Shown here one piece after another: positions 3,540 through 5,384 of a DNA stretch of 5,384 nucleotides. The first letter of the stretch is position 1. Each line of letters begins with the position of its first letter. This DNA comes from a virus (lineage: Duplodnaviria > Heunggongvirae > Uroviricota > Caudoviricetes). Both the position numbers and the translations under genes were made by a program. The notes below the pieces were generated by a model that was not told where the DNA came from, ran no database searches, and saw nothing but the letters and a program-made list of their open reading frames with translations. Location of the stretch: the IMG/VR virus record IMGVR_UViG_2606217105_000010; one strand, written 5' to 3'.

Positions 3540-5384
3540 ATGGCAGTAAAGATTTCAGGTGTACTGAAAGACGGCACAGGAAAACCGGTACAGAACTGCA
3601 CAATCCAGCTGAAAGCAAAACGTAACAGCACCACGGTGGTGGTGAACACGCTGGCCTCAGAAAATCCGGATGAAGCCGGGCGTTACAGCATGGACGTTGA
3701 GTACGGTCAGTACAGCGTTATTCTGTTGGTGGAAGGATTCCCGCCATCACATGCCGGGACCATCACCGTGTATGAAGATTCTCAACCCGGTACGCTGAAT
3801 GATTTTCTCGGTGCCATGACGGAGGATGATGCCCGTCCGGAGGCACTGCGCCGTTTTGAGCTGATGGTGGAAGAGGTGGCGCGTAACGCGTCCGCGGTGG
3901 CACAGAACACGGCAGCCGCGAAGAAATCAGCCAGCGATGCCAGCACATCAGCCCGTGAGGCGGCAACCCGTGCGACTGATGCTGCAGGCTCAGCACGAGC
4001 AGCCAGCACGTCAGCCGGACAGGCCGCGTCGTCGGCTCAGTCTGCGTCTTCCAGCGCAGGAACGGCATCAGCAAAGGCCACTGAAGCATCAAAAAGTGCT
4101 GCCGCTGCAGAGTCCTCAAAAAGCGCGGCGGCCACCAGTGCCGGTGCGGCGAAAACGTCAGAAACGAATGCGGCAGCGTCACAACAATCAGCTGCCACTT
4201 CTGCATCCACCGCGACCACGAAAGCGTCAGAAGCAGCCACCTCAGCCAGAGATGCGTCGGCTTCAAAAGAGGCGGCAAAATTATCAGAAACGAGCGCAGC
4301 CTCGAGCGCCAGTAATGCCGCTTCCTCGGCAACGGCGGCAGGAAATTCCGCGAAGGCGGCAAAGACGTCTGAGACAAACGCTAAGTCCTCTGAAACGGCA
4401 GCAGCACAGAGTGCCTCCGCAGCAGCAGGCTCAAAAACAGCGGCTGCGTCGTCTGCCAGTGCAGCGTCAACAAGTGCCGGGCAGGCCTCAGCCAGTGCTA
4501 GCGCCGCCGGAAAATCGGCAGAAAGCGCCGCATCGTCCGCTTCAACAGCCACAACGAAGGCTGGCGAAGCCGCTGTACAGGCCAGTGCAGCAGCGAGGTC
4601 TGCTTCCGCAGCGAAGACATCCGAGACGAACGCGAAAGCGTCGGAGACCAGCGCAGAATCCTCAAAAACGGCTGCCGCATCGTCCGCCAGTTCGGCGGCG
4701 TCATCGGCATCATCTGCGTCTGCTTCAAAAGATGAGGCGACCAGACAGGCGTCAGCAGCGAAGGGCAGCGCCACGACGGCATCCACGAAGGCGACAGAGG
4801 CTGCTGGCAGTGCGACAGCGGCAGCACAGAGCAAAAGTACGGCGGAATCCGCGGCAACGCGCGCCGAGACAGCAGCTAAACGGGCAGAGGATATTGCATC
4901 CGCCGTGGCGCTTGAGGATGCAAGTACGACGAAAAAGGGGATAGTACAGCTCAGCAGTGCGACCAACAGTACGTCTGAAACGCTGGCGGCAACGCCAAAG
5001 TCAGTAAAATCAGCCTATGACAATGCAGAGAAACGTCTGCAGAAAGACCAGAACGGCGCTGATATACCCGATAAGGGACGCTTCCTGAACAACATTAACG
5101 CGGTCAGTAAAACAGACTTTGCTGATAAGCGTGGTATGCGTTATGTGCGGGTTAACGCTCCTGCAGGTGCAACATCTGGAAAATATTACCCTGTTGTTGT
5201 TATGCGTTCTGCTGGCTCAGTAAGCGAACTGGCATCAAGGGTCATTATCACCACGGCAACGCGAACCGCAGGCGATCCGATGAATAACTGCGAGTTTAAT
5301 GGATTTGTTATGCCTGGTGGCTGGACTGACAGGGGGCGTTATGCTTATGGAATGTTCTGGCAATATCAAAACAATGAACGAGCC
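3540..5384 (+). CDS. stf: Side tail fibre protein Stf, 3'-partial; lambda-like N-terminal domain plus Ala/Ser/Thr-rich shaft, then a divergent distal module
   Basis: ATG at 3540, preceded by a G-rich stretch (GGGG 3531-3534) as a weak Shine-Dalgarno. I translated this frame by hand and it stays open to the window end. It is absent from the supplied ORF track, presumably because it has no stop inside the window. N-terminus MAVKISGVLKDGTGKPVQNCTIQLKAKRNSTTVVVNT...GQYSVILLVEGFPPSHAGTITVYEDSQPGTLNDFL matches my recollection of lambda Stf (orf-401). The conserved tail-fibre motif KKGIVQLSSATNSTSETLAATPKSVK is present near 4930-5010. Confidence 0.88.
   Translation, partial: MAVKISGVLKDGTGKPVQNCTIQLKAKRNSTTVVVNTLASENPDEAGRYSMDVEYGQYSVILLVEGFPPSHAGTITVYEDSQPGTLNDFLGAMTEDDARPEALRRFELMVEEVARNASAVAQNTAAAKKSASDASTSAREAATRATDAAGSARAASTSAGQAASSAQSASSSAGTASAKATEASKSAAAAESSKSAAATSAGAAKTSETNAAASQQSAATSASTATTKASEAATSARDASASKEAAKLSETSAASSASNAASSATAAGNSAKAAKTSETNAKSSETAAAQSASAAAGSKTAAASSASAASTSAGQASASASAAGKSAESAASSASTATTKAGEAAVQASAAARSASAAKTSETNAKASETSAESSKTAAASSASSAASSASSASASKDEATRQASAAKGSATTASTKATEAAGSATAAAQSKSTAESAATRAETAAKRAEDIASAVALEDASTTKKGIVQLSSATNSTSETLAATPKSVKSAYDNAEKRLQKDQNGADIPDKGRFLNNINAVSKTDFADKRGMRYVRVNAPAGATSGKYYPVVVMRSAGSVSELASRVIITTATRTAGDPMNNCEFNGFVMPGGWTDRGRYAYGMFWQYQNNERA
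3883..4905 (+). repeat. Low-complexity Ala/Ser/Thr-rich imperfect tandem-repeat region inside stf (fibre shaft)
   Basis: About 340 codons dominated by Ala, Ser and Thr with recurring motifs. A(A)KTSETNA occurs three times with its Lys codon at 4152, 4362 and 4614 (spacings 210 and 252 nt). STATTKASEAA / STATTKAGEAA / STKATEAAGSA recur. The DNA copies differ at synonymous positions (gcgaaaacgtcagaaacgaatgcg; gcaaagacgtctgagacaaacgct; gcgaagacatccgagacgaacgcg). Confidence 0.75.

Follow-up and report, generated by a model that had tools for sequence, protein, structure and literature searches.

The Ala/Ser/Thr-rich shaft of a lambdoid StfR-type side tail fiber as a probable trimeric rod of seven-residue repeats

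We analyzed a stretch of 5,384 nucleotides (nt) of tailed-phage DNA (Caudoviricetes; IMG/VR record IMGVR_UViG_2606217105_000010), hereafter the window, which carries the 5' part of stf, a side tail fiber gene. Within this gene a tract rich in Ala, Ser and Thr at 4149-4640 (amino acids, aa, 204-367) had been described, in an initial annotation made from the sequence letters, as three diverged units of 70-84 aa. Our analysis revealed that the true repeat period of the shaft is 7 aa, and that the tract is very probably the central part of the proximal trimeric coiled-coil rod of a lambdoid prophage side tail fiber of the StfR type, StfR being the homolog in the Rac prophage of Escherichia coli K-12. 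As the middle of such a heptad rod, the tract is real, ordinary and already known. What was observed here, and what this reading draws on, is the reading frame, the heptad periodicity, the heptad counts against phage lambda and K-12, the in-phase insertions and deletions among relatives, and the helix propensity of the sequence.

Written as rows of seven residues, aa 112-454 of the window Stf form 49 heptads in one register, without interruption:

3873..4901, + strand: coiled-coil shaft of 49 uninterrupted heptads, aa 112-454, consensus xAAxSAx (from the single register, autocorrelation and AlphaFold2, AF2)

Of 50 rows in this array, 47 have Ala at position 2, 37 have Ser at position 5 and 35 have Ala at position 6, and the shaft in its single register scores 675 bits, a value that measures internal consistency since the matrix was built from the same heptads. 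Autocorrelation over aa 105-470, compared with composition shuffles, gave z=7-11 at all multiples of 7 aa across lags 7 to 140, and lags 70 and 84 did not rise above lags 7, 28, 49 or 77. Self-alignment, which had been proposed as the check on the longer units, thus finds significant periodicity, but at 7 aa and not at 70-84 aa. At the DNA level the repeat spacings in the region are mostly multiples of 21 nt; Tandem Repeats Finder detected no tandem array in the shaft DNA, only a trivial 9-nt repeat, because the repeats exist at the protein level only. The uninterrupted seven-residue period and the small residues at fixed positions place the shaft with the heptad coiled coils of the PCoil type, in which the heptad is Ala-x-x-Ala/Ser-x-x-Ser and lengths vary by multiples of seven (PMC3368898).

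The same phase is kept among relatives. As a measure of shaft length, residues were counted between the conserved EDDARPE motif and the first anchor on its distal side in 283 retrieved loci; these loci supplied the lengths, a protein search with the N-terminal 118 aa having returned mostly short contig-end fragments unusable for the purpose. In the class that ends in the hinge anchor GIVQLSSA, 88 of 89 loci show lengths of 260, 267 or 372 aa, all of which differ by multiples of 7. In the class with the anchor PLPDVWIP, which marks another distal module, the lengths are 161 and 266 aa, 105 aa apart, in 64 of 64 loci. Across the two distal-anchor classes, 152 of 153 loci therefore vary by whole heptads, the one exception being longer by 4 aa. 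For collagen-type relatives the anchor distances (141 versus 156 aa) are no basis for comparison, since a regular expression alone sets where the collagen repeat starts. These in-phase differences are an independent reproduction of the multiples-of-seven statement for PCoil. Variation of fiber length by repeat number, put forward in the initial annotation as plausible, is thus real, in steps of seven that had already been reported (PMC3368898).

The trimeric state and the rod shape come from the literature on homologs. The PfN-PCoil fragment of a related prophage fiber is alpha-helical by circular dichroism, trimeric by size-exclusion chromatography with multi-angle laser light scattering (SEC-MALLS), and a stalk of ~16 nm by electron microscopy (EM) (Ghosh et al. 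2012, PMC3368898). In Ur-lambda, cryo-EM revealed twelve StfN collar domains (StfN 1-94), with a trimeric bundle connected by linkers of 10 residues with three collar domains, and cryo-electron tomography (cryo-ET) revealed four side fibers bent at a hinge; the proximal coiled-coil domain there comprises residues 102-393, an assignment from AlphaFold3 modeling by segments with cryo-ET as the check (Yu et al. 2025, PMC12617516). By composition the tract could instead pass for a disordered low-complexity linker, given that A+S+T make up 260 of its 370 residues, that a Pfam search of Stf found no model covering it, and that AF2 confidence is low. A linker, however, would have no reason to keep a strict 7-residue phase over 343 residues, nor to restrict the insertions and deletions of its relatives to multiples of 7, and the homologous segments are the helical, trimeric rods seen by the methods just named (PMC3368898, PMC12617516). 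We therefore regard disorder in place of an ordered rod as extremely unlikely.

For the ordered rod, an assembly may be proposed in which three chains, each fixed to the tail by its N-terminal collar domain, merge after a short linker. The merged chains would form a parallel trimeric alpha-helical coiled coil of 49 Ala/Ser-rich heptads (xAAxSAx) and, in this allele, we infer that this rod would act as a thin spacer holding the hinge and the receptor-binding distal half off the tail. The helix rise is ~0.148 nm per residue. This value agrees with the 16 nm reported for ~110 residues, and with rod length set by the heptad count, as would apply to this allele, ~343 residues would span ~51 nm and the 34 heptads of lambda ~35 nm. 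In-phase duplications and deletions of heptad blocks probably lengthened and shortened the array; these events would be old in this allele because its synonymous sites are randomized.

Several points weigh against so tidy a picture. Structural support for this particular allele comes from a low-confidence single-sequence AF2 monomer of window Stf aa 90-527 (mean predicted local distance difference test, pLDDT, 66.6), in which helix is predicted at aa 98-386 and 393-483; the break at aa 387-392 is probably a fold-back artifact. The core of the coiled coil may consist of positions 2 and 6 of the heptad, or else of 2 and 5. Of the fiber, the window holds only the proximal half, the receptor-binding distal half lying beyond its end. 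Finally, the exceptional locus among the 153 (IMGVR_UViG_2850808358_000003) carries a 4-aa insertion, TSAS, in the coil at Stf aa ~224-227. As the sole out-of-phase insertion or deletion in this set, it means that strict heptad phase is not absolute; the insertion shifts the heptad phase in the manner of a coiled-coil stutter, and could be real or a sequencing error.

The proposed longer units had been built on a motif, KTSETNA, which lies in the array as follows:

4152..4172, + strand: KTSETNA copy 1, aa 205-211, also in lambda
4278..4298, + strand: degenerate copy KLSETSA, aa 247-253, which reads KSSETNA in lambda and K-12 StfR
4362..4382, + strand: KTSETNA copy 2, aa 275-281, also in lambda
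4614..4634, + strand: KTSETNA copy 3, aa 359-365, not in lambda

The description of the motif itself was accurate: three in-frame copies begin at nt 4152, 4362 and 4614 (aa 205, 275 and 359), spaced 70 and 84 codons apart, both of which are multiples of seven. A shaft of three or more diverged higher-order units of 70-84 aa, each marked by KTSETNA and numbering one more than in lambda, would account for these spacings and for the two exact copies that lambda has. It also gains from the non-random recurrence of the 9-mer AAKTSETNA, present three times in the shaft (P=0.004 under shuffling within heptad columns), and from a local search against a column-shuffle null, which matched aa 273-286 with 357-370, at lag 84, over 2 heptads, the motif plus one heptad (P=0.002). 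The same search matched aa 217-251 with 329-363 over 5 heptads (P=0.014), and beyond these 2- and 5-heptad blocks it found nothing above column-shuffle background; likeness past the motif reaches just one more heptad. When whole heptads were permuted, a null that keeps the 7-residue signal, no longer period emerged at lag 70 (z=0.9) or lag 84 (z=1.7), neither being significant. The best lag, a whole-array period of 77 aa (z=2.7), was rejected after multiple-testing correction (family-wise P=0.14). This negative result is meaningful, because in a relative, L103, which does have a duplicated stretch of 63 aa, the same test readily picks it up (z=5.5). With the segment absent from lambda measuring 105 aa, neither 70 nor 84, units of this size are very unlikely, and the model of 70-84 aa units is already largely refuted. 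KTSETNA is a recurring variant of a heptad pair, AAKTSET followed by NA.. in the next heptad, within the array and not the start of a larger unit.

The relative used as positive control, a prophage locus, and a second one, L105 (from Escherichia ruysiae and Escherichia sp.), hold six KTSETNA copies ahead of a PLPDVWIP... distal module. Their shaft contains a tandem duplication of 63 aa (9 heptads), the copies of which are 90% identical in aa and 86% in DNA.

Lambda Stf, as present in Ur-lambda and split into orf-401 and orf-314 in lambda PaPa, shares with the window Stf the collar domain, the linker, the heptad coiled-coil rod and the hinge motif. In a MAFFT alignment, lambda orf-401, the N-terminal part of Stf, is colinear with the window Stf save for one gap of 105 aa:

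4449..4763, + strand: 105 aa (15 heptads, aa 304-408) without lambda counterpart, from MAFFT against lambda orf-401, megablast and heptad counts; the repetitive sequence leaves its edges uncertain to within a few residues

In agreement with this gap, megablast aligned 1461 nt of the window to 1146 nt of lambda, and the scoring matrix counts 34 heptads in lambda against 49 in the window. The first two KTSETNA copies stand at identical positions in both proteins; in lambda the exact motif occupies aa 205 and 275, with KSSETNA at aa 247, and the count of two for lambda in the initial annotation proved right in the alignment for exact motif copies. The suggestion that the window shaft is one unit longer than that of lambda survives in part. 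The shaft is longer and the extra part does hold the third KTSETNA, but the difference is exactly 15 heptads and not a single unit of 70-84 aa.

A step of exactly 105 aa also separates the short from the long shafts in both anchor classes (267/372 and 161/266), although their distal modules are unrelated and their shaft sequences differ; it may be a coincidence or a preferred length step. That shaft length is quantized in 15-heptad steps, and not freely variable, strikes us as improbable. Were it true, it could mean selection for set reaches or rotational phases of the fiber relative to the central J fiber or the cell-envelope thickness; 15 heptads (105 aa, ~15.5 nm) correspond to about one turn of the superhelix in such a coiled coil. 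In this improbable reading the AAKTSET/NA heptad pair, seen also in the rods of T7 gp17 and the T5-like LtfA, could be a register-setting polar layer or a preferred recombination point.

Among relatives the long shaft is the usual one. StfR of the E. coli K-12 Rac prophage (b1372, NP_415890.2; UniProt P76072 as cited in PMC3368898) occupies the same gene position, lom-stf-tfa-pin, and has the same N-terminal domain and 49 heptads, with KTSETNA copies starting at aa 205, 275 and 359 and the hinge motif following at aa 467. The two proteins are 96.9% identical across the 615 residues that the window shows, with 19 aa differences, 17 of them within the shaft; where the window has KLSETSA, K-12 StfR has KSSETNA. 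Identity to Stf of phage PhiR34_1 is 97.4%. The 49-heptad architecture was found in all of the best 120 protein clusters, and it dominates in a set of 80 viral contigs for which the N-terminal domain served as query. Matches occur in 4985 of 5426 complete E. coli genomes, in 1865 of them with 80% or more of the query covered at one place, and the best of these matches bear the annotation stfR or prophage tail fiber N-terminal domain protein. In the relatives sampled, lambda is the less common short form.

Contigs with a lambda-type stf N-terminal part were also retrieved from assemblies of unrelated bacteria, including Pseudomonas, Shewanella, Kitasatospora, Oceanobacillus, Bradyrhizobium and others (among them L085-L100, L104, L106 and L113). 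Their complete open reading frames (ORFs) equal lambda PaPa orf-401 in length and heptad score, and several of the contigs are ~48.5 kb long at ~1x coverage; they are almost certainly lambda DNA contamination. Many NCBI records of Stf proteins are evidently misannotated, bearing the name 'short-chain fatty acid transporter'. In the top-scoring protein clusters we observed an additional copy of the hinge motif (GIVQLSSATNSTSE... then GIIQLSSATNSTSE...), annotated as PF03406.

The shaft DNA was further examined for traces of recent repeat turnover. As the initial annotation had noted, the three KTSETNA copies have diverged synonymously, differing at most third codon positions; its further step, that this limits homologous deletion, goes too far. 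Active selection of synonymous divergence between repeats to suppress such deletion might be read from the lack of any exact DNA repeat of at least 15 nt within 1029 nt encoding a highly repetitive protein sequence, and from an unusually even usage of Ala and Ser codons. Permuting synonymous codons among identical residues over the 1029-nt shaft, however, yields the same statistics: exact DNA repeats reach at most 14 nt versus 12.7+-2.0 after permutation, shared 12-mer pairs number 3 versus 2.4, and codon identity at in-register identical residues is 0.26 versus 0.25. There is thus no sign of recent duplication and no repeat avoidance beyond chance; codon choice amounts to random assortment and indicates no selection against recombination. 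In-phase deletions, moreover, do happen in relatives, in lambda and in a locus (IMGVR_UViG_3300030035_000027; truncated ORF of 388 aa) that has 16 heptads fewer than the window. The junction of this latter deletion falls inside the motifs KSSETNA and KTSETNA, at window aa 247 and 359, as if copies of the motif had recombined unequally. Selection against deletion is, on balance, an unlikely source of the synonymous divergence.

In a set of 21 distinct alleles with 49 heptads, polymorphism within the gene is highest in the shaft (window 3909-4892). Its nucleotide diversity (pi) is 0.05-0.07, compared with 0.012-0.028 for the N-terminal domain and 0.006 for the part after the hinge, and the increase shows at each of the three codon positions. 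Of the 66 differences between the window and K-12 stfR, 41 lie within 4149-4640. Substitutions relative to 56 homologs, counted in the stf frame, number 2354 at codon position 3 and 404 and 558 at positions 1 and 2, and judged from this pattern only the stf frame is under coding constraint over the shaft. Three of the five other frames contain 0-3 stops here, being open or nearly open because of the GCN/TCN/ACN codon composition. Long ORFs accordingly run over the shaft in other frames at 3937..4944 (+), 4037..4966 (-) and 3763..4377 (-), the last being the counterpart of the annotated orf206b of lambda; as coding sequences these alternative-frame and antisense ORFs were rejected, the substitutions concentrating on stf codon position 3.

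Comparable rods occur in other fibers. The PCoil of prophage collagen-like tail fiber proteins (EPclA and others, E. coli O157:H7; PMC3368898) likewise follows a PfN N-terminal domain with an Ala/Ser-rich heptad coil, but this coil is far shorter (~17 heptads) and leads into a collagen triple helix, whereas the window Stf continues into a hinge (and, in Stf, distal domains); one of the retrieved loci, L101, is an example of this collagen type. The rods of T7 gp17 (residues 172-271) and of LtfA from the T5-like phage DT57C (residues 35-155) share a heptad-pair motif, AAxxSExNAxxSE, with window 4185-4484 (Stf aa 216-315). In a PDB sequence search with the shaft alone, these two gave E=0.023 and E=0.057, marginal values that are not significant for a compositionally biased sequence; their N-terminal attachment domains are unlike that of Stf, and homology to the window Stf rod is not established.

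All elements of the window fiber have been described before: K-12 StfR has the architecture, the heptad and its multiples-of-seven rule date from 2012 (PMC3368898), and the rod structure dates from 2025 (PMC12617516). Beyond correct annotation as a standard StfR-type side tail fiber gene, its significance is small. For the design of lambda-type Stf chimeras or the comparison of fiber lengths, it is the heptads that should be counted (34 in lambda, 49 in StfR), in-phase changes by whole heptads being the natural mode of length variation.

The identity of the gene follows from its surroundings and its conserved ends. The window is the right end of a lambdoid tail operon with the order J-lom-stf, as in lambda and PhiR34_1:

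32..2809, + strand: C-terminal part of J, the central tail fiber (ORF list; context)
2876..3475, + strand: lom, an outer-membrane protein (ORF list; position matches lambda lom and PhiR34_1 Lom; context)
3540..5384, + strand: 5' part of stf, the side tail fiber gene, 615 codons to the window end (translation, PF08400, identity to homologs)
3540..3812, + strand: StfN collar domain, aa 1-91, which binds the junction of tail tube and tip (PDB 9e7m; limits from PMC12617516)
3813..3842, + strand: flexible linker, aa 92-101 (homology to lambda, near-identical sequence; limits from PMC12617516)
4860..5099, + strand: rod end and hinge-region motif (GIVQLSSATNSTSETLAATPK...), common to fibers of the Mu S and P2 H type (PDB matches)

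The Pfam prophage tail fiber N-terminal domain PF08400 (phage_tail_N) matches Stf aa 1-134 (E=4.1e-72), and the chain of PDB 9e7m, the solved collar domain of lambda Stf (1-94), matches residues 1-94 (E=1.9e-52). At the other end, aa 441-520 match structures of the Mu tail fiber S, PDB 8ju3 (E=6e-19) and 5yvq (E=1e-16). With this N-terminal domain, a position after J and lom, and the hinge motif, the protein belongs to the Stf/StfR family; the gene at 3540 is stf, and 4149-4640 sits between its conserved N-terminal and hinge parts. In the closest relatives, PhiR34_1 and K-12 Rac, the gene order continues as stf-tfa-pin, tfa being the chaperone gene that in this family comes after the C-terminal receptor-binding region, and the window stops at codon 615. 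Two terminator-like GC-rich hairpins followed by T runs lie at 2827-2846, just after J, and at 3502-3523, after lom and directly upstream of stf.

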